Below, piece after piece: positions 2-9,385 of a stretch of 26,956 bases of DNA. Positions within the stretch are counted from its first letter, which is position 1. Each line of letters opens with the position of its first letter. This DNA is from an uncultured bacterium (lineage in GTDB: Bacteria > Planctomycetota > UBA8108), in NCBI GenBank assembly GCA_913050545.1, contig CAJWZY010000001.1:1-26956 (forward strand). The letters are read 5' to 3'. Position numbers and translations under genes: made by a program. The notes under the pieces were generated by a model that saw only the letters and a list, made by a program, of their open reading frames with translations, was not told the DNA's origin and searched no databases.

Positions 2-1963
2 CCGGCCGCAGATCGGCCTACGGACACCCCGGCCGGGATGGCGCTCTGGGAGATTGAGGTGGTCATTCCTGCGCAGCCTCCCGGCCTGGTCACTTTCGGC
101 CTGCGGGTCATCGATGAGCGCCAGGGACTCAATGTCCTCTTTGATGAGGACAACGCTCCCCGTGACAATCCCGCCATTGCGCCCGTGGTTTCATTCAGCT
201 ACCTCTCCGGTGGAGCTCCCCCCGGAGATTCGGTGGGGGTGAACGAGATCCTGCCTGACAATGAAACCGTGGAGCTTCCGGGCTTTGCCGGCTTTTTTTC
301 CGACAGGTCGCCGGATTACATAGAAATTCATTTCCCGCAGGACTCCGAGGCTGATTTCTACGACCTGTCGGGACATTATCTCGCCGTGGAGCCCGGTCCG
401 GGCACCCCGATTGGAAGGCCGCGAGGCTTCGCGCTTCCGGATGGAATCGCGCCGGTCCCGCGGGGAGGATTCCGCCTGCTCGCTCTCGGACAGGTTCCCC
501 AGGGCGTACCGGTTGCCGAGCTCATCGGTTTTGATCTTCCCGACCCCTGTTCCGGCACACTCTACCTGGTAGGGCCGGATGACCTCGGCAATTGCGTTGT
601 AGACAGGATCTCCTGGGACTGCAGCACGGACATCGGTGGGGAGGTCACCAACGACCGGGCCTATGGAAAATTTTGTGGCGTTGTCGGTTCAGATTCGCGG
701 ATCAACCCATCACCCGGGGAGCCGAATGAGCTCGAGTCCCTGTTCTTTGGGGCTTTTCATACCGATGCCAACAACGCCAGCGATGATCCGAATTCGTGCG
801 TTGAAGGTGTCCTCGCGGTCCTGACGTCTGTTTTCTTTCTGGACGAAGCTATAGTTGGTTCGCAGGCAGCGTTGGGAGAAGATGCGATCACTGAAATCAC
901 CTTTGATGTCGAGGGAGCCACGAAGCTGGGATCTCCCATTATCGCGAACCTGGGGTCCAATGACGCGCCTGATGGATATGTCGCGATCAGCGTTGCCCAG
1001 TCCCTCTTGCTCAATGTCCCTGGAATCTCGAGGGTCGATTACTCGGTCTCCATCGTGGATGCCTGCGGCAACACAATTTCTTCATGCGACCCGGGACAAA
1101 GGTGCTTCAGCCTGGGCATTGGCTCCGAAGGGTTGCCGGGAGTGGTCATCAACGAGGCCAACAGGAAATCCGTCCTGCCTGGGAGCGGGGGCGTGGCTCG
1201 TCCCTGGCTTGAACTCTATAATGGATCCGCCGAAAGCATCGACCTTGGCGGCATGTTTCTCTCGGCGCAGGCGAGGGCTCCCCGTGACGTCCCGCTCCCG
1301 CAGGGAACGATACTTGCCGCGGGCGAAGCACTGGTTGTATTGACCGATGGAGGGCCCGCCCTGCAGGGAGTCGGGGTTCCCTCCCACCTGGTTGTCGAGC
1401 TGGATTGGATTACCCGGAAGGTGTTCTGTTTCAACCCGAATGAGCCCTGTGATCAACCAGGTTCAGCCAACCTGATTCGCAGCGTCTGCGGTATTGACCC
1501 CGATTCTCCCGAAGACACACCGGACCCGGTCCGGATCTATCTCACCGACCACATAGATCGTGGCTCCTGCCTGGTGGATGTATTCGGTTTCGAGTTCCCG
1601 AATCCGGATTGCTCGGATGGAACCAGCATGGGGCGCTTTCCGGACGGAGCAGAGGAGATTGTTGAGCTGGCGGAGCCTTCCCCGGGGGTGGGAGCAGCGC
1701 CGGTTACCTTTATCAGGGGAGATGCCGATGGAGACGGGGTTGTGGACAGTAAAGACGTGCAGCTGATCCTCGAGCTCGCCACCGGACAGGGAGTCCCACC
1801 CCCCTGCATGGACCGCTTCGACGTCGATGACAACGGCCAGGTGAACACCACCGATGGAATCTACCTTTTGACTTTCTTCAACTCCAATGGCCCTCCTCCC
1901 CCTCCTCCCTTCCCGGAAGAAGGAGAGGATCCCACTCCTGACCTCTTGAGCTGTACAAGGTGA
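2..1963 (+). CDS. Secreted/surface protein with two lamin-tail (LTD) domains and a C-terminal dockerin-like (double EF-hand) module; 5'-truncated by the window edge
   Basis: Frame is open from position 2 (no stop upstream of ATG 38). Two LTD-like segments: VGVNEILPDN...DYIEIH...DLSGHYL and VVINEAN...PWLELYNGSAESIDLGGMFLS. C-terminus FIRGDADGDGVVDSKD...CMDRFDVDDNGQVNTTD...PFPEEGEDPTPDLLSC has two Ca-binding-type loops (starts nt 1709). Confidence 0.8.
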   Translation, partial: PAADRPTDTPAGMALWEIEVVIPAQPPGLVTFGLRVIDERQGLNVLFDEDNAPRDNPAIAPVVSFSYLSGGAPPGDSVGVNEILPDNETVELPGFAGFFSDRSPDYIEIHFPQDSEADFYDLSGHYLAVEPGPGTPIGRPRGFALPDGIAPVPRGGFRLLALGQVPQGVPVAELIGFDLPDPCSGTLYLVGPDDLGNCVVDRISWDCSTDIGGEVTNDRAYGKFCGVVGSDSRINPSPGEPNELESLFFGAFHTDANNASDDPNSCVEGVLAVLTSVFFLDEAIVGSQAALGEDAITEITFDVEGATKLGSPIIANLGSNDAPDGYVAISVAQSLLLNVPGISRVDYSVSIVDACGNTISSCDPGQRCFSLGIGSEGLPGVVINEANRKSVLPGSGGVARPWLELYNGSAESIDLGGMFLSAQARAPRDVPLPQGTILAAGEALVVLTDGGPALQGVGVPSHLVVELDWITRKVFCFNPNEPCDQPGSANLIRSVCGIDPDSPEDTPDPVRIYLTDHIDRGSCLVDVFGFEFPNPDCSDGTSMGRFPDGAEEIVELAEPSPGVGAAPVTFIRGDADGDGVVDSKDVQLILELATGQGVPPPCMDRFDVDDNGQVNTTDGIYLLTFFNSNGPPPPPPFPEEGEDPTPDLLSCTR

Positions 1964-2096
1964 GTGGTAGAGGAGAGGACAGGACAACTCGTATTTCCGG
2001 AACATGGGGCCGACTTTATCGCTTTTTTCAGCCTGAAATTCTCTAACTGGCGTGGAACTGCCATGTTGCAGGCATTCTGATGCCGATACTTATCCT

Positions 2097-3665
2097 ATGA
2101 GCGAATTACCACACAGAATTTTTATCCCCGGGCGATGCGGCTTCCTCATGGTCGCATCCTTCCTGGCCGTTCTTTTCATTTTCCCCGCTCCTGCCTGGTC
2201 GCAGGCTCCCGCAAAGGGTGCAGATCTCGAGAAGAGGCTCGAAGACCTGGGCGAGGAGGTCGAGAAGCTCAAGGGCAAGCTCAAGAAGCTGAAGGATGAC
2301 AAGTCAGCCGAGACCCTGCTGACCCTCGGAGGCGTCGGGATGATGCTGGGGGGTAAGATCGAGTTCAATTTTCTCGCTCCCGAGGAAGATAATTCGCTGC
2401 AGGGTTTAGGGGCTGGTTTCACCACCGGGCAGGTTGACCCGCATCTCGAGCTGCAACGCCTCAGGCTATCACCCTCGTTTGAGCTCAACCGCTGGATCCA
2501 GGTCCAGTCGCAGATTGACTTCGAGGCGATGGCGGGTGACACAGTCCTCAAGGAGCTCGTTGTACGCCATGATGTACAGCCGTGGTGGTGGCTTCGGTCG
2601 CGTTTCCAGCTTGGCCTTGACGACAGGTTTATTCGACCGGCCCGCAGGACCAAGACCTATCCGCTCATCGGCAATGCCTTCTGGCGTGATGAGTCTCTTG
2701 CGACGGTCTGGCAATTGACCTTCGGTCATAAGAAAGGTGCTGCTGCCGGGATCGATCGCTTTACCAGGGACCTCGATAGCAGCGGTGCAGGAGGCGGTGG
2801 GGCCTTTACCGAGGGCTTCGAAGAGGATCTCGACAGAGATGACTCTCCGGGTGGAGCAGCCCTGAGGGGCCCCTTCGATTTTTCCAACAACTGGGGGGCC
2901 TTCAACCTGTTCCTCTCCCTCGGCCAGGGCTACCAGCTGGGTAATAAGGAGGTCGGCTTCGGCCAGGCGCGCTTTAATGACATCGTGCAGGATGACCGGG
3001 AGCTGGAGGACGATCTTGCGTTTGCAGAGCTGGGGATCGGCGTGGGCTGGCGTCGCAGCTTTGAGAGATTAGGAGAGTTCGGTATTTCAGGTTTTTATTT
3101 CAACGACAATCTTCGCCAGGGCTCGCTCGATTTTCTCCAGGGAGACCTGATGACCAACAGGGCTCCTGACAATTCCGTTGAATCAGGTTACGGCGATTCA
3201 ATCGATGACAATTCGAGCCGTTGCGGCATCAGCCTGGATTACTTTCTGCCGGCCTCTACCATCTTCCCGCGCTGGAGGAAGAACGTGCGCAAGCAGGATG
3301 GTCTGCGGCTGGGCTTTCAGTACATGAATGCCGAAGACGGGAAGATGAGCCGGGATGGCTGGTATACCCAGACCTCCTATCGATTTTCCTTCGGAAAGCT
3401 GCTGGCCGACCGCTACTTCCGCAGCATCGAGCCGCTGTTGCGCTATGGCGCACTTGATGTAGATGCTCCCGGTTCCGCTGGCCAGCCTTTCAAATCACCC
3501 AGCCTGCCCGGCACCTGGGATCGACAGGCGCTGACGGTGGGGGCCCTGCTGGAGGTCACCGGCGACATCTTCATGAAAATGGAATATTCCATGCACTCTG
3601 AAGATGGCGGCGGGGTCGATGTCGACAACGACGAGCTGCTCATCCAGTTGCTGTTGACCTTCTAA
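2097..3665 (+). CDS. Outer-membrane beta-barrel (porin-like) protein with signal peptide and N-terminal coiled coil
   Basis: Hydrophobic signal segment ending in PAPAWS|Q, then a coiled coil (LEKRLEDLGEEVEKLKGKLKKLK). Many alternating amphipathic strands and a C-terminal beta-signal ...ELLIQLLLTF. Start uncertain (GTG 2052, ATG 2097 or ATG 2148). Confidence 0.7.
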   Translation: MSELPHRIFIPGRCGFLMVASFLAVLFIFPAPAWSQAPAKGADLEKRLEDLGEEVEKLKGKLKKLKDDKSAETLLTLGGVGMMLGGKIEFNFLAPEEDNSLQGLGAGFTTGQVDPHLELQRLRLSPSFELNRWIQVQSQIDFEAMAGDTVLKELVVRHDVQPWWWLRSRFQLGLDDRFIRPARRTKTYPLIGNAFWRDESLATVWQLTFGHKKGAAAGIDRFTRDLDSSGAGGGGAFTEGFEEDLDRDDSPGGAALRGPFDFSNNWGAFNLFLSLGQGYQLGNKEVGFGQARFNDIVQDDRELEDDLAFAELGIGVGWRRSFERLGEFGISGFYFNDNLRQGSLDFLQGDLMTNRAPDNSVESGYGDSIDDNSSRCGISLDYFLPASTIFPRWRKNVRKQDGLRLGFQYMNAEDGKMSRDGWYTQTSYRFSFGKLLADRYFRSIEPLLRYGALDVDAPGSAGQPFKSPSLPGTWDRQALTVGALLEVTGDIFMKMEYSMHSEDGGGVDVDNDELLIQLLLTF

Positions 3666-3719
3666 TGGTCCGGCCCCGGGCTTGAGGAGAGTCGTTCAGC
3701 CTCCGCACTTTCCTGCTGC

Positions 3720-3748
3720 TTGACAACCAGGGAACTCCCCCCTAATAT
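3720..3748 (+). promoter_or_regulatory. Putative sigma70-type promoter upstream of the VTC gene
   Basis: Perfect TTGACA at 3720-3725, 17-nt spacer, TAATAT at 3743-3748, inside an AT-richer intergenic stretch. Confidence 0.55.
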
Positions 3749-3872
3749 CGAAATAGGCCTAATGCTTTTCTTCTTAAAGCTTTACGAGCCTATGGCGCAG
3801 TTGGATTTGTGTAACCGGCCGGGCAACCTGCCGGTTTTCGGGGGACTTGTTTCAGCGGAGGTGGGTTCTTTC

Positions 3873-4790
3873 GTGCTTCAGGGCAGGAGCGATAACGGCC
3901 GGATCTCCGGCGAAGAGACTTACAGCCGCAGCCCGAATTACATTCGGCGCTCTGAGACCAAGTATGAGCTCAGCCGGGCGGAATTGTCCGTTATAGAAGG
4001 TGAGTTTTCCCGCCGTCTTCCTGTTTTCGAATTCAATCCCGGCCAGCCGTTTACACACATTACGACGGTGTATTTTGACACCCCCGGGCTGGAGCTCTAT
4101 GAGCGGGCTTGTCGGCGCTACGATGACAACCTGAAGGTCAGGGTTAAGGAATATTACTACCTCGATCCCGACGGCAGGGAGCTTGTCTACCCCTATTGCT
4201 TTATCGAGCTGAAGCAGCGTCGCGATGGCATGGTCTCCAAGCAGCGCCTGCGAGTTGCCAAGGAATGCCTGGCGGATTTCATTCGTGGTGAGGATCTTCG
4301 CGACAGGCTCCGGCCGCAACCTGCTCCAGGTACCAGGGATGAAGGGGTGGTCCAGGATGATTTTGACAGGGCCTATGACGTCCTGCGGGAGAGGCTCGCG
4401 ATGACGCCCCTGAGGCCCGTGTCGGCGATCAATTACCGCCGCAGGGTTTACCAGAGGGATGAAAAAACCCTGCGGGTAACCTTCGATGACCGGATAACGG
4501 TTTATGAGCCGCCGCTGAATCTCTATTGTGAAAAGGCCGCCCTGGTGGCCTCCAGGCTGGGCAGGCCCGTGGGACGGACAGCAAAACTGATTGCTGAAAT
4601 TAAGTGTAGAAATTTGTCAGCAGGTTCCTTCCCGCGCTGGCTTGAAGTTATACTATGCACTCTTGATGCCAGGTCGCTGTCAAAGTTTACGACGAGCGTT
4701 AACTTCATATTGAACAAAGACCAGGAATCAACCCGGGTGCCGGGACCGGACGGTGTCGCCACCAGGGTTGATGGTCCAATGGAAAATTGA
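3873..4790 (+). CDS. VTC domain / polyphosphate polymerase domain-containing protein (CYTH-like triphosphate tunnel fold)
   Basis: Motifs RRSETKYEL (ExK), ITTVYFDTPGLELY, KVRVKEY, FIELKQRRDGMVSKQR, INYRRRVY, LRVTFDD, IAEIK and LSKF match the VTC family pattern. Start placed at GTG 3873 (SD GGAGGT at 3857-3862); the ORF track TTG 3720 lies on the -35 box. Confidence 0.85.
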   Translation: MLQGRSDNGRISGEETYSRSPNYIRRSETKYELSRAELSVIEGEFSRRLPVFEFNPGQPFTHITTVYFDTPGLELYERACRRYDDNLKVRVKEYYYLDPDGRELVYPYCFIELKQRRDGMVSKQRLRVAKECLADFIRGEDLRDRLRPQPAPGTRDEGVVQDDFDRAYDVLRERLAMTPLRPVSAINYRRRVYQRDEKTLRVTFDDRITVYEPPLNLYCEKAALVASRLGRPVGRTAKLIAEIKCRNLSAGSFPRWLEVILCTLDARSLSKFTTSVNFILNKDQESTRVPGPDGVATRVDGPMEN

Positions 4791-4793
4791 GCT

Positions 4794-6590
4794 ATGTCTG
4801 ATTCTGTTTCAGGAAGTCCCGACCAGGACTCTGCGGGGGCCATGGAGCCCGTCTTTATTGACTTTGAGGGTATCGACGGTAGCGGAAAGACCACTCTTTC
4901 CAACCGCATCGCTCAATATCTCATCGATTGCGGAATTCCCGTACATCACGCCAGGGACCAGGGCGTGTTTCGTTCGGAAATATCCAAGGCCATTCGTGAC
5001 CTGACCAGGGACCCTCGCTTCCTGCGCATGTCGGATGTTACCGAGTTCCTGCTCTATGTTGCCAGGGACACGCAGATGATCGACGAGTATATTCGTCCCA
5101 AGCTGCTCCCCGGCAACCTCGTCTTCTGCGACCGCTATCTCTACAGCGCGATCACCCATTCCCATCACGCCAGGGGCTTGTCGCGAGAGGGAGTCGACAA
5201 GGTGCTGGAGCTGGCAGCCAGGGATCTCTGGCCCGACCTGGTGGTCTACTGTGATGTAGATCCCCTGACCTCCCGCCTGCGTAAAAAGATCCAGAAGGTA
5301 CGGGACAAGAAGAAGGCGGGTGATTTTGGCCGCAAGGGGCTCATGGGGATCGGTTTCCGTGAAGAGATGCGCAAGGGCTTCCTCCAGCTGGCCGATGAAG
5401 ATCCAGACAACTGGCTGGTTATCGATAATGCCAATTCAACAATCGAAGAGTCCTTGCAGCGAATCTTCAACCGTATCAAGGATGTGCTGGCCCGCAAGGG
5501 CTACCCGGAAATACCTGATCCATGCTGGGCCGAGCTCAGCTCTGAAGAAAAGCCGCTTGGCGAGTTCGCTGCCGGCTCCCTCGAGATCTGCAAGGGAGAG
5601 GATGAAGAGGGGCGCAGGGTTGCCCTGACCGACCACTTCTATTCTGAACTCGACAGGCTTTGTGAAAATGCCGCGGGCTTCACCGCTCTCTTTACCTCCG
5701 GACTGGACACCCCTGAAGCTCACGCTCTTCGGGCGAAGGTCAAGGACCGGGAGCCGGGCATGGTTGCCAAGGGCCTGGGAGGATTGCGTTCAGAAGAGGC
5801 CATGGATCTTCGTGAAGAGCTCAAGGACACGGTGCCTGTTTTTGTTGCAGGTAGTCTCTCGGGAATGGGGAAAAACCCCCGCGCCTGCCAGCTGCGGCTG
5901 GAGCTTGCGGATGTGGCCCCCGAGCAGATCGCCCTGGCCGTTCGCGGCAGCGATTCTGAGCACGCCTGGGAGCTTCGCGACCAGCTGGACAAGAAGGTTC
6001 CGGACGAGGTGTTGATGAGCCTGCGGGGGCTTGAGACCGAGCGCGCCTGGGAGATGAGGAATGACAGGACCCGGGATAAGTACGCCCGGGCTCTCCTTGA
6101 GAGCCTTGGTGGGATTGACAGCGAGGAGGCCTGGGAGCTGCGCGAACGTTTCTCCGACGAGTTCCTTCCCTGGGTGTTGATCAGCCTGAGGGGGTTGAAA
6201 TCCGAGCGCTCCTGGCAGCTGCGCGAGGAGCATGTATGCCGGGCTCCGAAAATCATCATCAAGACGATTGGTTGCAGTAACGATCCCCGGGCCTGGGATG
6301 TCCGCAACGCCTCCAAGCTCTACGCCAAGGAGGTTCTTGATTCTCTCAGCGGGCTTGATTCCGGCGATGCCTGGCGTCTTCGAATGGAGCTGAAAGACAA
6401 GTGGCCCAACACGGCGGTTTCCAGTATTGGGGCGGGTGCCCAGTCGGAGAGGGACTGGAAATTCCGGTGGGAGATACTTGAGGGGCATCCCGGCAACCAC
6501 CTGCTTGCCAAGCACCTGGTCAAGGCCCAGCTGAAGAGTCTTTCGCGGCGGGCCAAGGAAGAGGCCAGGAAGGAAGAAGGGGCCGTCTGA
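4794..6590 (+). CDS. Thymidylate-kinase-like P-loop domain fused to a C-terminal alpha-helical repeat (HEAT-like) domain
   Basis: N-terminus FIDFEGIDGSGKTT (P-loop), LVFCDRYLYS (DR motif) and WPDLVVYCDVDP are TMK-family hallmarks. About 370 extra C-terminal residues contain a repeated SLxGxxSExAWxLR motif. Starts 3 nt after the VTC stop. tmk symbol withheld because dTMP-site residues deviate. Confidence 0.8.
   Translation: MSDSVSGSPDQDSAGAMEPVFIDFEGIDGSGKTTLSNRIAQYLIDCGIPVHHARDQGVFRSEISKAIRDLTRDPRFLRMSDVTEFLLYVARDTQMIDEYIRPKLLPGNLVFCDRYLYSAITHSHHARGLSREGVDKVLELAARDLWPDLVVYCDVDPLTSRLRKKIQKVRDKKKAGDFGRKGLMGIGFREEMRKGFLQLADEDPDNWLVIDNANSTIEESLQRIFNRIKDVLARKGYPEIPDPCWAELSSEEKPLGEFAAGSLEICKGEDEEGRRVALTDHFYSELDRLCENAAGFTALFTSGLDTPEAHALRAKVKDREPGMVAKGLGGLRSEEAMDLREELKDTVPVFVAGSLSGMGKNPRACQLRLELADVAPEQIALAVRGSDSEHAWELRDQLDKKVPDEVLMSLRGLETERAWEMRNDRTRDKYARALLESLGGIDSEEAWELRERFSDEFLPWVLISLRGLKSERSWQLREEHVCRAPKIIIKTIGCSNDPRAWDVRNASKLYAKEVLDSLSGLDSGDAWRLRMELKDKWPNTAVSSIGAGAQSERDWKFRWEILEGHPGNHLLAKHLVKAQLKSLSRRAKEEARKEEGAV
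5697..6510 (+). repeat. Protein-level tandem repeat, about 10 units of ~27 aa (consensus SLxG[L/I]xSExAW[E/x]LRxxLxxxxPxxV)
   Basis: Units such as SLRGLETERAWEMR, SLGGIDSEEAWELR, SLRGLKSERSWQLR and SLSGLDSGDAWRLR are read directly from the translation. Confidence 0.8.
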
Positions 6591-6623: not shown

Positions 6624-7499
6624 CTAGTGTGTGCAGTCGTCATCGCCACAATCGTGATCGTGATGGTCATCGTGATCGTGATCGTGATGGTGAGAGGAGA
6701 ACTCAGCGGTTTCCCCTCCATCGGTTTGTGCCCGGTTCACCCGGTGACTTTCGAGGTCTTCTTCGAAGATCCATCCGTAGCATTCTTCCCAGGGTGAGAT
6801 GGTGGGGATGAAGGGGATGCTCTCCGGGTTTTCTTCCAACAGCTCTATCGAATCCTGCAGGCCGGGATTCACTCCTCCATAGTCCTTCATGAAGATCCTG
6901 CGCAGGTCATCAAGGAAGCCGTAGTCGCCGAGCCGGGCGATCGCGGCCGCGGCCTCTTCCAGGGCGCGTTCGCCGGCTGGTTTGCCCAGCTCCCTGGCGA
7001 TCCTTGTTCGCAGAAACTCCCTGATCTCCTCGATGTATTCTTTTTCTTCGAGGGCACCGCAGTCTCCCAGGAGGCCGTAGGTCTGTCGGCGGAGATCAAG
7101 CCCCGGCTCCTCGTCGACCCATTCCATCAGGGCCTCCAGGGCGGGAACCCCGATCCTCAGCAGTGCAATCCCCGAGGCCTGGGAGAGGCTCTCCTCGTCC
7201 TCCAGCGCGAAGCTCCTCAGCAGGGTATGAATTGCCGCCTGGGAGCGGGATTCGGCCAGGATGGCAACGATCCAGAGTGCCGCCTCGTCCTCTCCGAGGT
7301 TTTCATCGACAGCCACCTCGAGCGCGTCAGCCAGTCGGCCCTGGAAATCTCCGTCTTCGAGGGCACTGTTAACAAGGCCGCGTACGGTGCGTGCGATATC
7401 CTGCCTGTCATCGCTGAAGAGACCGGACAGCTCGGGTTCGTCCACCAGGTCTTTTAACGAGGGGCTGTTTAAAAGGTCATCGAGTTCGGAGTCGGGCAT
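6624..7499 (-). CDS. HEAT-repeat-like acidic helical protein with C-terminal His/Asp/Cys-rich tail
   Basis: HEAT-like helices (ALWIVAILAESRSQAAIHTLLRSF; ALLRIGVPALEALMEWV; AAAAIARLGDYGFLDDLRR). Ends HHHDHDHDDHHDHDCGDDDCTH. Confidence 0.7.
   Translation of the reverse strand: MPDSELDDLLNSPSLKDLVDEPELSGLFSDDRQDIARTVRGLVNSALEDGDFQGRLADALEVAVDENLGEDEAALWIVAILAESRSQAAIHTLLRSFALEDEESLSQASGIALLRIGVPALEALMEWVDEEPGLDLRRQTYGLLGDCGALEEKEYIEEIREFLRTRIARELGKPAGERALEEAAAAIARLGDYGFLDDLRRIFMKDYGGVNPGLQDSIELLEENPESIPFIPTISPWEECYGWIFEEDLESHRVNRAQTDGGETAEFSSHHHDHDHDDHHDHDCGDDDCTH
6627..6692 (-). repeat. Low-complexity (ATCGTG)n-type repeat encoding the His/Asp tail
   Basis: Imperfect hexamer repeats atcgtg between 6651 and 6691; the 22 terminal codons encode HHHDHDHDDHHDHDCGDDDCTH. 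Confidence 0.8.
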
Positions 7500-7558: not shown

Positions 7559-9385
7559 TTATTCCTCGAGGTCCTCGAGCTCTTTATCGAGGTCTTCAGG
7601 AATACCGCCTTCTTCAGGATCGCTGGCCTCTTCTTTGTCATCTTCCCCGCTGCTGTTCTGGATAGCCAGCTGGCTTTTGATGGACTCGATGTATTGCTCG
7701 GCCCTTTTTCGAATGGTGCCATCACCGTATTTAGCGGCCTGCGCGGCGACAGCAATAGCCTTCTGCGGCTCATCTCCAGCGAGATCCTGGATCTTCAACT
7801 CGTCCGTCTCCCACTGCTTGACCATGGCATTTTCAGCCTTGAAGAACATCTCGTCGATTTCTTTTTCATGCTTCTGCCCGTACTCATTTTCAGCATCACG
7901 GATCTTGTCCATGGCCGGGGCCCAGAGTCCGGTCGCGTAGAGATCATTGAAGGTTTTGACGTAGCTCTTGAAGCTGCCCTCTCTTCCTGTTTCAGCTTCT
8001 TTAGTAGCCGCCCTGTCTTCCTCTGCCCTTGCATGGACCTTGGCGTAGAGTGTGCTTAGCATCACCGCGCCGGGCTTGTTATAGAAACGGGCCTCGATCT
8101 GCTGTTCGAGATGGCCTTCTATCATGCTGGCACTCTCACGGGCCTCGAAGCGTCCTGTCTGGGTGAGATGGTATTTTTCGACCTCTGCGCGTTCGGTGTC
8201 ATACCGCTTTTTGAGGAGGTTTTTCCTCTTCTGGTTTTTCTCCTGCCCAATCACGAGGCTGCTGTCAGCGTTGGCCTCAAGTTGTTGATTGCTGGTCTTG
8301 TTGGTCATGACCAGCACGAGGCCTGCGATCACGACCCCGACCGCCGCCCCGCCCATGATGAAGGGGTGGCTCTTTCTGCTGCCGCTGCCCACCGCGTAAT
8401 CGATGTTCGCTTCCTCTTCGAACCGGTCTTCGAAGATATCCGCATCATCTCCGCGATCGATGAGCTGGCCAGAGAGCTGCGCTCCTGTCCCGGAGGATTT
8501 CCCCTTGCGGCTGCCGCCAAAGGACTTCTTTGTCTCGGGGCGTTTGAATTTGCCGGCTTTGCCGGGGCCTTTTGAGGTGGAGGTCTCGGTTTTCTTTTTG
8601 CTGAAGGAGGGGGGCTTGCGGCCAGTTCTTGTTGCAGGTTGCCCAGCCTTCTTTTCGGGGGTCCTGCTCCCGGTTTTTTCGGTGGATCCCTCAGCTCTCT
8701 TCTTTTTCGATGAGAACTTGATCTTGGGAGGGGAGGCTTTGATCTTGGGAGGGGAGGCTTTCTTTTTTTTCTTTGTGTCCGAGGCCTCGGAATTTTCTTC
8801 CTGTGGAGGCGCCGGCGGGGCGCCTTGCTCACTGCTGGCTCCCTGCCTCAGGCAGATCTTCAGGCGCCGCAGGAGTTCGGGGACGCTCTGGATCCTCTGC
8901 TCAGGGTTTTTTCTCAGGAGCTCCTGGATAGTACGGCTGAGCTCGGCGGAGATGCCGGTCCCCTTCTCTGCAGGGTCAGGGACATCTTCCTTCAGATGTG
9001 CCTTCAGGATGTCCTTGGGAGATTCTCCGTTGAAGGGCAACCCTCCTGTGGCGATCTCAAAAAGAGTACACCCGAGTGAGTAGAGGCTGGATTTGAAATC
9101 ACCTTCTTCACCACGTATTTCCTCGGGGGATGCGTGCTGGGGGAAGCTGGCGACAATCGGCAGTCCCAGGTCTGTTTCATCCGAAGGTGTGATGTCAATC
9201 TTACCGCTGGTGGTGATGATGATACGCCCGGTATGGAGAACAGGAGCTCTGCTGCCAGTCTCGGACTCCGATTCCTCGCCGATCATCTGGGCCAGTTGGA
9301 TGGCGAGTTTTGCCACCTGGGGACCGGGTAAAGGACCCTTGGTTTCAAGATATTCAGCCAGCTTGATCCCTGGTTTGTCTGTCAT
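7559..9385 (-). CDS. Membrane-anchored Ser/Thr kinase-like (pseudokinase) protein: kinase C-lobe, Lys-rich linker, one TM helix, helical extracytoplasmic domain
   Basis: Hanks-kinase subdomain VIII-XI motifs are present (QHASPEEIRG, SLYSLGCTLFEIATGGLPFNG, LLRKNPEQR) but HRD and DFG are absent. TM FIMGGAAVGVVIAGLVLVM at about 8307-8363. Confidence 0.75.
   Translation of the reverse strand: MTDKPGIKLAEYLETKGPLPGPQVAKLAIQLAQMIGEESESETGSRAPVLHTGRIIITTSGKIDITPSDETDLGLPIVASFPQHASPEEIRGEEGDFKSSLYSLGCTLFEIATGGLPFNGESPKDILKAHLKEDVPDPAEKGTGISAELSRTIQELLRKNPEQRIQSVPELLRRLKICLRQGASSEQGAPPAPPQEENSEASDTKKKKKASPPKIKASPPKIKFSSKKKRAEGSTEKTGSRTPEKKAGQPATRTGRKPPSFSKKKTETSTSKGPGKAGKFKRPETKKSFGGSRKGKSSGTGAQLSGQLIDRGDDADIFEDRFEEEANIDYAVGSGSRKSHPFIMGGAAVGVVIAGLVLVMTNKTSNQQLEANADSSLVIGQEKNQKRKNLLKKRYDTERAEVEKYHLTQTGRFEARESASMIEGHLEQQIEARFYNKPGAVMLSTLYAKVHARAEEDRAATKEAETGREGSFKSYVKTFNDLYATGLWAPAMDKIRDAENEYGQKHEKEIDEMFFKAENAMVKQWETDELKIQDLAGDEPQKAIAVAAQAAKYGDGTIRKRAEQYIESIKSQLAIQNSSGEDDKEEASDPEEGGIPEDLDKELEDLEE
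8718..8759. repeat. Exact 21-bp tandem duplication (encodes ASPPKIK x2)
   Basis: ttgatcttgggaggggaggct at 8718-8738 and 8739-8759. Confidence 0.9.

Follow-up and report, generated by a model that had tools for sequence, protein, structure and literature searches.

A conserved VTC-domain and thymidylate-kinase-fold gene cluster of a marine planctomycete, probably involved in handling phosphate polymers across the cell envelope

The window analysed here is a stretch of 26,956 nucleotides that starts at base 1 of its own contig, so sequence further upstream is unreadable in the current assembly; in an 87%-identical relative an unrelated amidohydrolase gene sits upstream of the LTD gene. As the first-pass annotation had described, the window opens with four co-oriented genes, which occupy + strand ORFs at 2..1963 (5'-open), 2052..3665, 3720..4790 and 4794..6590. 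They encode an LTD/dockerin-like secreted protein, an outer-membrane porin, a VTC-domain protein and a thymidylate-kinase-fold P-loop kinase fused to an alpha-solenoid (TMKf). The gap of 3 nt reported between the last two genes is also correct: the VTC gene ends with TGA at 4788-4790, and TMKf starts with the ATG at 4794. This gene order is repeated in every relative of the same taxonomic order with enough flanking sequence, which is far beyond chance. The four-gene cluster of this marine planctomycete is confirmed as real and conserved.

The first gene (2..1963, + strand) is cut by the contig end, and what is left encodes the C-terminal 653 aa, only half of a protein that is about 1,300-1,376 aa long in relatives. 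Pfam detects LTD (1.1e-7) and Dockerin_1 (8e-4) in this fragment, both slightly under their gathering scores, and finds LTD at 6e-27 to 8e-32 in full-length orthologues. The protein has an N-terminal signal and LTD region and a C-terminal dockerin-like module in common with the LTD-CotH-dockerin paralogues of the genome, and no CotH domain was found by Pfam in the cluster's exported protein, full-length orthologues included. Judged from its sequence, the product of gene 1 is a secreted multi-LTD protein with a predicted dockerin-like Ca-binding tail.

A Pfam search with the second gene (2052..3665, + strand; likely start ATG 2097) gave no match, and its structure model is a 16-strand outer-membrane porin with a signal peptide and an N-terminal coiled coil. 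It lies directly upstream of the VTC gene, a position conserved in relatives. The porin had earlier been proposed to be dedicated to phosphate or polyP, and such selectivity is not supported. Its top Foldseek matches are indeed OprO/OprP (PDB 4rjw, 2o4v), the phosphate-/pyrophosphate-selective porins of P. aeruginosa, which share the 16-strand barrel, but the OmpF fold fits equally well. The window's porin is net acidic, and the invariant residues of its family comprise 13 basic and 18 acidic positions. Porin_O_P (PF07396) is matched by the Myxococcota and deeper-relative porins in the equivalent operon position but not, at E<=1, by the window's porin or its order-level orthologues. The Porin_O_P-positive Myxococcota operon porins show no sequence kinship to the window's porin family (hhalign probability 1%).

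To our knowledge, bacterial VTC-domain proteins are the sole prokaryotic relatives of the eukaryotic polyP polymerase. Apart from the third gene (3720..4790, + strand; likely start ATG 3762 or 3792), no VTC gene was found in the window's genome. The product of this gene is a soluble protein of ~300-330 aa in which Pfam finds the VTC domain alone (PF09359, E 1e-29; 3948-4703), with neither an SPX domain nor a fused membrane channel domain. In this it differs from the eukaryotic VTC complex (PDB 3g3q, 7ytj, 8i6v), and its presumed membrane partner, DUF4956, is a family unrelated to the eukaryotic channel (Vtc1/2/3). The catalytic tunnel domain, in contrast, is alike, with every key residue kept. 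A profile built from 16 orthologues matched the Vtc4 catalytic domain at 1.7e-19, compared with 4e-11 to 6e-8 for Vtc2/3, and its best PDB match was catalytic Vtc4, aligned over the whole domain. The motifs R-x-E-x-K, K-x-R, E-x-K-x-R, Y-x-R, R-x-T-x-D, E-x-K and S-K-F are invariant in these orthologues, as are the equivalents of the Vtc4 tunnel residues K200, R264/R266, K281, Y359/R361, R373, E426 and S457/K458. By these comparisons, the VTC profile fits catalytic Vtc4 better than the inactive Vtc2/3. The bacterial proteins do retain the ancestral ExExK-type glutamate (in R-x-E-x-K), unlike eukaryotic Vtc4, which has Thr there. A promoter-like site (TTGACA-17-TAATAT, 3720..3748, + strand; 10/12 consensus match) lies just upstream of the probable VTC starts, and is weak evidence because 3 such sites were found where 2.7 were expected.

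The fourth gene, encoding TMKf (4794..6590, + strand), matches Pfam Thymidylate_kin at 2.2e-24 over residues 24-224, and its C-terminal ~370 residues have no Pfam match. The kinase domain spans residues 20-234 (4851-5495) and the solenoid residues 273-598 (5610-6587), the latter made up of about ten 27-28-aa helical repeats with an AWxLR anchor. Within the TMKf family the P-loop FEGIDGSGKTT, the DRY motif and three phosphate-binding Arg are invariant. The dTMP-recognition motifs REPGG and S(S/T)xxYQG, by contrast, are replaced by RDQGV and SAITHSH, the second at a position not conserved within the TMKf family, whereas the genome's own canonical Tmk reads CREPGG and SSVVYQG. TMKf differs from bacterial Tmk (EC 2.7.4.9; PDB 5x7j, 2pbr) in the loss of these motifs, in a basic insert of 11 residues in the lid, which contains an invariant FGRKGLxG and brings the lid to a net charge of +9, and in its C-terminal solenoid of 360 aa. 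The two coexist as paralogues: a canonical 200-aa tmk is present on another contig of the same genome (G000:C33; 158 bits versus 90 for TMKf), and one accompanies TMKf in 22 of the 25 TMKf-carrying relatives. The earlier concern that TMKf might be the sole dTMP kinase of its genome is thereby removed. TMKf is not the housekeeping kinase, but a cytoplasmic paralogue of thymidylate kinase on a helical-repeat platform. Databases name it dTMP kinase because its score against the NCBIfam equivalog TIGR00041 (93 bits) exceeds the cut-off of 83.25. TMKf neither matches Pfam PF03976 (PPK2) nor has PPK2 as its closest structural neighbour. PPK2 (PDB 6aqe, 3czp) is nevertheless a lid-bearing P-loop kinase of related fold, and its role, polyP-nucleotide phosphotransfer, would suit the gene context of TMKf.

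Two minus-strand genes face the cluster. The nearer (6624..7499), convergent with TMKf, encodes a HEAT-repeat-like protein that is acidic (net -47) and has a C-terminal tail rich in His and Asp. It was recognised by an Atlas feature search (HEAT_2/HEAT_PBS clusters at 0.93), has no Pfam match, and shows synteny both in the order and in family f5. The other (7559..9385) encodes a membrane protein in which a Ser/Thr kinase is reduced to its C-lobe (Pkinase 3.5e-8, profile positions 162-253 only), a probable pseudokinase. This gene is syntenic across the order, and a kinase/response-regulator fusion occupies its position in the distant relative L026.

The earlier doubt as to whether the cluster genes co-occur is likewise resolved. 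A VTC gene is in the cluster at 29/31 informative TMKf genome loci, from Planctomycetota and Myxococcota, and on 3/3 informative metagenome contigs of deeper TMKf relatives; the sampled kin are not independent, and some five to six deep lineages underlie the linkage. Across a phylum sample of 251 genomes, TMKf was found in 13, all of which carry VTC (69/251 overall) and 12 of which carry strong CotH matches (40/251 overall). CotH, DUF4956 and LTD, named in the first-pass annotation as VTC-associated, are all present in relatives' clusters. Its interpretation is partly supported: it stands as regards linkage and the status of TMKf, and lacks support as regards a phosphate/polyP-selective porin.

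The companions of the cluster vary by lineage and include a porin, DUF4956, CotH kinases, a small LTD protein and a Na/Pi cotransporter. LTD-porin-VTC-TMKf, with the HEAT-like and pseudokinase genes opposite, is kept across three families of the order, and a fourth has porin-VTC-TMKf-DUF4956. Other Planctomycetota show VTC-TMKf-(DUF4956)-CotH x4, Myxococcota show Porin_O_P-VTC-TMKf-DUF4956, and relatives at ~30% identity have CotH-Porin_O_P-TMKf-DUF4956-LTD-VTC-Na/Pi cotransporter. The clades of the TMKf tree match these layouts, which fits an old module rearranged along lineages. TMKf is also found without VTC: one Myxococcota locus reads porin-TMKf-DUF4956, and relative G018 has LTD-porin-TMKf, with no VTC found anywhere in its single-contig 9.2 Mb assembly (marker-gene completeness 91%).

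Neither the window nor its own 55%-complete genome yielded DUF4956. This gene adjoins TMKf in family f5, Myxococcota and deep relatives, and relatives in the window's genus encode a homologue elsewhere, beside a MutS-like gene, that is 32% identical to the TMKf-adjacent DUF4956 of f5. Similarly, no CotH kinase gene was found in the window's cluster; 16 CotH matches lie elsewhere in its genome, CotH adjoins the cluster in other lineages, and four TMKf-carrying families have 12-70 CotH genes per genome. In 3 of the 4 TMKf-carrying families neither PPK1 nor PPK2 was found; the search covered 20 relatives from f1, f3 and f5 and also the window's genome (55% complete). The VTC route would therefore be the only recognisable polyP synthesis there. 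These lineages, in which neither classical polyP kinase was found, and TMKf itself, as a strongly conserved cytoplasmic partner, are two new handles on bacterial VTC proteins.

A trio of CotH, polyP-polymerase-domain and MgtC-type membrane proteins has been described in the Pel locus of Streptococcus intermedius, where deletion of SIR_1592 and SIR_1594, two of its three genes, altered Pel levels and aggregation (PMC12345266). This Pel-adjacent set of Gram-positives (SIR_1592-1594; PMC12345266, bioRxiv 10.1101/768473) has the same VTC-type enzyme, and its partner families (DUF4956/MgtC-like with a C-terminal cytoplasmic domain, and exported CotH) are found in the clusters of relatives and elsewhere in the genus. 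The window's cluster, by contrast, is Gram-negative, includes an outer-membrane porin and has no Pel locus. It also lacks DUF4956 and CotH, with the multi-LTD/dockerin protein in the exported-protein position, and has a cytoplasmic TMK-fold/solenoid protein, putatively translationally coupled to VTC, that is absent from the Pel-adjacent set.

These data allow us to propose that the cluster probably handles phosphate polymers across the cell envelope. For the VTC product, the TMKf substrate and the direction of transport we infer the following. Working on the cytoplasmic side of the inner membrane, VTC would convert NTP into polyP or a related phosphoanhydride. TMKf, which would be translationally coupled to VTC, appears to retain ATP binding; it keeps the arginines that bind phosphate, and its lid is very basic. 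Since thymine recognition is lost while these sites are kept, its acceptor would be a phosphate-rich molecule other than dTMP, either in polyP priming or in PPK2-like polyP-nucleotide phosphotransfer, and its solenoid may dock partners or polymer. The inner-membrane step would fall to DUF4956, encoded elsewhere in the genus, and the porin would provide the outer-membrane path. Likely extracytoplasmic users are the multi-LTD/dockerin protein and the many LTD-CotH-dockerin paralogues of the genome. On balance we favour this reading: the cluster would work as described and would represent, in a TMKf-carrying sub-variant, the Planctomycetota version of the widespread, published bacterial VTC/DUF4956/CotH-LTD module, which often includes an outer-membrane porin. 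Were polymer indeed delivered to the envelope, it could be a source of phosphoryl donor for many exported CotH kinases, with a bearing on the phosphorus economy of open-ocean planctomycetes. We think it unlikely that the stronger version holds, with TMKf as a new phosphotransferase class that forms with VTC a PPK1/PPK2-independent polyP cycle, carried across the envelope by DUF4956 and a dedicated porin and supplying phosphoryl donor to dozens of exported LTD-CotH kinases, so that protein phosphorylation would be powered outside the cytoplasm, where ATP is absent.

The system could instead serve import and storage, with the porin bringing in phosphate or short polyP (in relatives together with the Na/Pi cotransporter), VTC storing cytoplasmic polyP, TMKf standing in for PPK2 by moving polyP phosphate onto nucleotides, and the LTD/CotH proteins being scavenging or unrelated surface proteins. 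We regard this as possible, if on the improbable side. A Na/Pi cotransporter lies inside the operon of two deep relatives, Myxococcota and deep-relative versions have Porin_O_P-type porins, PPK1/PPK2 were not found in families f1, f3 and f5, and the closest relatives come, by their record titles, from deep and open-ocean samples, a phosphate-poor setting. Import, however, leaves the recurrent linkage to exported CotH/LTD and the DUF4956 membrane protein unexplained, and any anion selectivity of the window's porin is only putative given its net acidity and OmpF-like match. In addition, polyP synthesis by yeast VTC is described as coupled to translocation of the product out of the cytosol (PMC9911596).

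Two further alternatives concern the enzymes themselves. TMKf retained where VTC is absent, HEAT-like neighbours in two lineages, a repeat type that occurs fused to other domains elsewhere, and a large, strongly conserved solenoid with a high-confidence model would all suit a nucleotide-dependent regulator or scaffold, whose solenoid brings VTC, DUF4956 and the HEAT-like protein together and whose kinase domain acts as a sensor of ATP/ADP or of phosphate status. The invariance of the P-loop Lys/Thr, DRY Arg and lid Arg over ~30-100% identity argues instead for kept phosphotransfer chemistry, and makes a purely regulatory role doubtful. That VTC is a triphosphatase or a nucleotide/phospho-sugar enzyme, serving envelope decoration or signalling without polyP, we hold to be very unlikely; the many activities of the TTM superfamily, the retained R-x-E-x-K glutamate and the lack of an attached TM channel or SPX domain would allow it, but the whole-domain match to catalytic Vtc4, including the S-K-F and E-x-K motifs, speaks against it, and the Porin_O_P and Na/Pi cotransporter of relatives point to inorganic phosphate species. 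Scarcely credible is a TMKf that is a genuine second dTMP kinase, adjacent to VTC without functional meaning: its own genome and most TMKf-carrying relatives have a canonical tmk besides, the base-reading REPGG and YQG are lost, the lid is remodelled, and adjacency to VTC is retained over two phyla despite rearrangements. Even conservatively read, these results mean that several hundred proteins are probably misannotated as 'dTMP kinase'.

The window opens contig C1 of a 2.36-Mb metagenome-assembled genome that is 55% complete, and whose close relatives are recorded as Planctomycetota of deep or open-ocean samples. Reading of the open frames and of the VTC/TMKf junction bore out the four co-oriented genes, the last two only 3 nt apart, that the first-pass annotation had described. 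On the plus strand these encode an LTD/dockerin-like protein (2..1963, 5' end open; Pfam LTD 1.1e-7 and Dockerin_1 8e-4, both scores slightly below the curated cut-offs), a porin (2052..3665, no Pfam match), a VTC protein (3720..4790; Pfam VTC 1e-29) and TMKf, a thymidylate-kinase-fold domain fused to an alpha-solenoid (4794..6590; Pfam Thymidylate_kin 2.2e-24 over residues 24-224). Three bases separate the VTC stop codon, TGA at 4788-4790, from the TMKf ATG at 4794. Two conserved minus-strand genes, convergent with the cluster, follow and encode a HEAT-repeat-like protein (6624..7499) and a kinase C-lobe membrane protein, probably a pseudokinase (7559..9385). Given that unrelated housekeeping genes (UbiA, UbiX-like, UbiE, TatD, TrkAH, a Cys/Met PLP enzyme and AcrB) occupy the window beyond 9.5 kb, we place the end of the cluster at about 9.4 kb.

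A profile built from 16 VTC orthologues aligned over its full length with the catalytic domain of yeast Vtc4 (1.7e-19), and more weakly with the inactive Vtc2/Vtc3 domains (4e-11 to 6e-8). The residues lining the Vtc4 tunnel are invariant in the VTC proteins (R-x-E-x-K, K-x-R, E-x-K-x-R, K-x-R, Y-x-R, R-x-T-x-D, E-x-K and S-K-F), and neither an SPX nor a membrane domain was found in the protein. A sigma-70-like sequence, TTGACA-17-TAATAT, lies at 3720-3748 (+) between the porin and VTC genes and overlaps the TTG at 3720; with three promoter-like matches found and 2.7 expected, it is weak taken alone. As this TTG coincides with the promoter-like site, the true start of VTC is probably the ATG at 3762 or that at 3792. 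If the promoter is real, VTC and TMKf would form a separate transcription unit and the annotated TTG start would be wrong.

The predicted structure of TMKf (pLDDT 90, pTM 0.84) combines the kinase-fold domain with a solenoid of about ten units of 27-28 residues, anchored by A-W-x-L-R. The P-loop, R54, R91, D113-R114 and S118 are invariant among 18 family members with identities down to 38%. Compared with the canonical Tmk of the same genome, TMKf has RDQGV in place of REPGG and SAITHSH in place of SSVVYQG, the latter segment varying within the family. In its lid a basic insertion of 11 residues precedes an invariant FGRKGLxGxGxR, and the net charge of the lid is +9. By this residue comparison TMKf keeps the ATP-side and phosphate-binding machinery and has lost base recognition. 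TMKf is labelled a dTMP kinase in the sources because it scores 93 bits against the NCBI equivalog cut-off of 83.25. The possibility, raised at first pass, that it is the sole dTMP kinase of the genome does not hold, since a separate 200-aa tmk (158 bits) is present, as it is in 22 of 25 TMKf-carrying relatives; TMKf is thus not the housekeeping enzyme, and a widespread annotation is probably to be corrected. A full-length relative is found in the AlphaFold DB cluster representative A7HFR3, an Anaeromyxobacter protein (TM 0.85/0.90, 34% identity).

The AWxLR repeat is an undescribed family with no Pfam model. Used alone as a query, the repeat domain matched 385 clusters at 50% identity, the best matches being mostly proteins 530-600 aa long in which the repeat covers roughly residues 240-560. 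Other architectures (P0132, P0146 and P0147) have the repeat fused to transglutaminase-like domains in proteins of 1,000-1,600 aa, or free-standing in proteins of about 340-380 aa. In a 2.2-Mb, 93%-complete planctomycete of family f56, the TMKf homologue (G097:C49:16389-17333) spans two in-frame TGA codons; it may have decayed to a pseudogene, or the organism may recode TGA.

We evaluated the linkage of these genes by scanning one genome per species, which gave 32 loci from Planctomycetota and Myxococcota, and by mapping the genes around them with seed proteins. The cluster includes VTC at 29 of the 31 loci that have upstream sequence, and in 28 VTC is immediately upstream of TMKf. Throughout the window's order (families f1-f3) the arrangement LTD - porin - VTC - TMKf is kept, with the HEAT-like gene and the pseudokinase opposite, at identities of about 60% for TMKf and down to 30-40% for its neighbours. 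In family f5 the genes run porin - VTC - TMKf - DUF4956, and the HEAT-like gene lies opposite. Other Planctomycetota have VTC - TMKf - (DUF4956) - four CotH genes - a 400-aa protein, or, in a second form, VTC - three CotH genes - a further gene - TMKf. The Myxococcota have Porin_O_P - VTC - TMKf - DUF4956. The 221-aa neighbour of TMKf is DUF4956/MgtC-like (6e-10, 9.5e-8). Three deep relatives, whose repeat domains share no more than about 30% identity, show CotH - Porin_O_P - TMKf - DUF4956 - LTD - VTC - Na/Pi cotransporter; TMKf - DUF4956 - LTD - VTC; and a further gene - TMKf - a further gene - VTC - Na/Pi cotransporter - CotH. Clades of the TMKf tree coincide with these layouts (window's order, 85/91; family f5 and the other Planctomycetota, 100; Myxococcota core, 100/99), and so fit a module that is old and has been rearranged along lineages rather than recently transferred.

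In a phylum sample of 251 genomes, drawn evenly, TMKf was present in 13, from families f1-f3, f20, f32, f56 and f75. All 13 carry VTC, compared with 69 of the 251 overall, and in each lineage outside the window's order VTC and TMKf share one contig. A strong CotH match was found in 12 of the 13, beside TMKf in most, compared with 40 of the 251. Because the genomes are kin, we count this as independent support from about five to six lineages. The co-occurrence of VTC with the kinase fusion, proposed from the window alone, is thereby confirmed in both surveys. We regard the cluster as a lineage-specific layout of the VTC/DUF4956/CotH envelope module, a sub-variant carrying TMKf.

TMKf is not strictly dependent on VTC, given two exceptions. 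The first is G018 (L040; C1 at about 5.22 Mb), a single contig of 9.2 Mb that is 91% complete by marker genes; it has LTD - porin - TMKf - HEAT-like - pseudokinase, and no VTC was found in the cluster or anywhere in the genome. The second is a Myxococcota locus (L058) with porin - TMKf - DUF4956. An apparent VTC-TMKf fusion in L058 was rejected, as the extension is open frame upstream of the start and holds no VTC domain. With VTC lost from both cluster and genome, G018 offers a natural "VTC deletion" for comparison.

The porin begins with a signal peptide (…APAWS/QAP), contains a coiled coil and ends in Phe, and its AlphaFold model, made from 12 sequences, is a beta-barrel (pLDDT 63, pTM 0.64). 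Porin_O_P did not match this protein or its order-level orthologues. It did match the gene that takes this place in the operons of Myxococcota and deeper relatives (3e-5; 1.2e-6, 28.5 bits, above the cut-off). A profile-profile comparison of window-type porins with these Porin_O_P-positive porins found no relationship (probability 1%). We dropped an OprO/OprP identity for the window's porin, which sequence, profile-profile and fold comparisons do not uphold. Since the position is kept and the sequence groups are unrelated, a barrel beside VTC appears to be conserved, its family having been replaced or having diverged past recognition.

DUF4956 is absent from the window's cluster and was not found in its incomplete genome. 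Genus relatives carry a DUF4956-like gene outside the cluster, which scores below the Pfam cut-off (1.8e-6 to 1.7e-4) and shares 32% identity (5e-26) with the TMKf-adjacent DUF4956 of family f5, C-terminal cytoplasmic domain included. This protein has four TM helices and an ACT-like C-terminal domain (L067:7670-8533). Its gene is translationally coupled, by a shared ATGA-type junction at 7670, to one for a MutS-domain-V protein of 700 aa, an unexpected pairing (L067:5571-8533, G006:C222; L068, G002:C113).

Of the LTD protein, whose orthologues have 1,266-1,376 aa and match LTD at 6e-27 to 8e-32, just the last 653 residues fall inside the window; in an 87%-identical relative the gene upstream is an unrelated amidohydrolase. 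The large CotH paralogues of the same genome are built as LTD - Fn3-associated - CotH - LTD - dockerin-like. BLASTP of the LTD protein against one of them aligned the N-terminal signal peptide and LTD (31% identity, 3e-11), at least three more LTD-like modules and the C-terminal dockerin-like DxDxDG pair. A CotH domain hidden in the LTD protein was rejected, as only the LTD and dockerin-like modules align. With these modules shared and CotH absent, the LTD protein belongs to the modular exported-protein family of the CotH paralogues, minus the kinase. There is no CotH gene inside the window's cluster; the 55%-complete genome has 16 CotH matches (e.g. L074:1957-3420, L075:714-4304 and L076:1626-5327). 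Scored matches number 25-41 in genus relatives, and first-look candidates reach 70 in larger relatives of families f1-f3 and f5. CotH genes are massively expanded in these TMKf-carrying families, compared with 0-2 in the sister families f4 and f6, both without TMKf.

Searches for PPK1 (PF02503) and PPK2 (PF03976) found neither in 20 relatives from families f1, f3 and f5, of which seven reach at least 90% completeness, nor in the window's own 55%-complete genome (relatives named: G001-G013, G015, G017, G019 and G022-G028). Since neither was found there, VTC is the only recognisable polyP synthase of the window's lineage. One or both are present in three of four f2 genomes (one without TMKf), both f4 genomes (without TMKf) and part of f6. 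The idea that TMKf and PPK2 are strictly complementary was rejected, as G014, G016 and G018 carry both. The main rival explanation is phosphate import and storage, with TMKf standing in for PPK2; the lack of PPK1/PPK2 favours it, as does the Na/Pi cotransporter of the deep relatives, but it leaves the linkage with CotH, LTD and DUF4956 unexplained.

The envelope-linked polyP system put forward by the first-pass annotation is partly upheld, in its linkage and in a non-housekeeping TMKf; the analysis establishes the genes, folds, residues and linkage, and chemistry, transport direction and partners we infer. In the envelope module, VTC most likely forms polyP at the inner membrane. TMKf would work on a phosphate-rich acceptor other than dTMP, or prime or recycle for VTC, and its solenoid would offer a surface for docking. 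The membrane steps would fall to DUF4956 and the porin, and the LTD and CotH proteins would work outside the cytoplasm.

Full-text literature searches turned up no work on the function of bacterial VTC proteins, DUF4956 or the kinase fusion, and nothing relevant on thymidylate kinase with VTC or CotH or on CotH in Planctomycetes. [quoted passage not shown] The cluster adds assayable proteins for the question of what bacterial VTC proteins do.

The minus-strand gene at 6624-7499, whose synteny with TMKf holds across families f1-f3 and f5, encodes a very acidic HEAT-repeat-like protein (net -47) whose His/Asp/Cys-rich terminal tail, HHHDHDHDDHHDHDCGDDDCTH, suggests metal binding. The gene at 7559-9385 (-), kept beside the cluster throughout the order, encodes a membrane protein. 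Its kinase part, the C-lobe alone of a Ser/Thr kinase, matches Pkinase profile positions 162-253 and leads through a Lys/Ser-rich linker and a TM segment to a helical C-terminal domain. At the equivalent place, a distant relative (L026) carries a kinase/response-regulator fusion.
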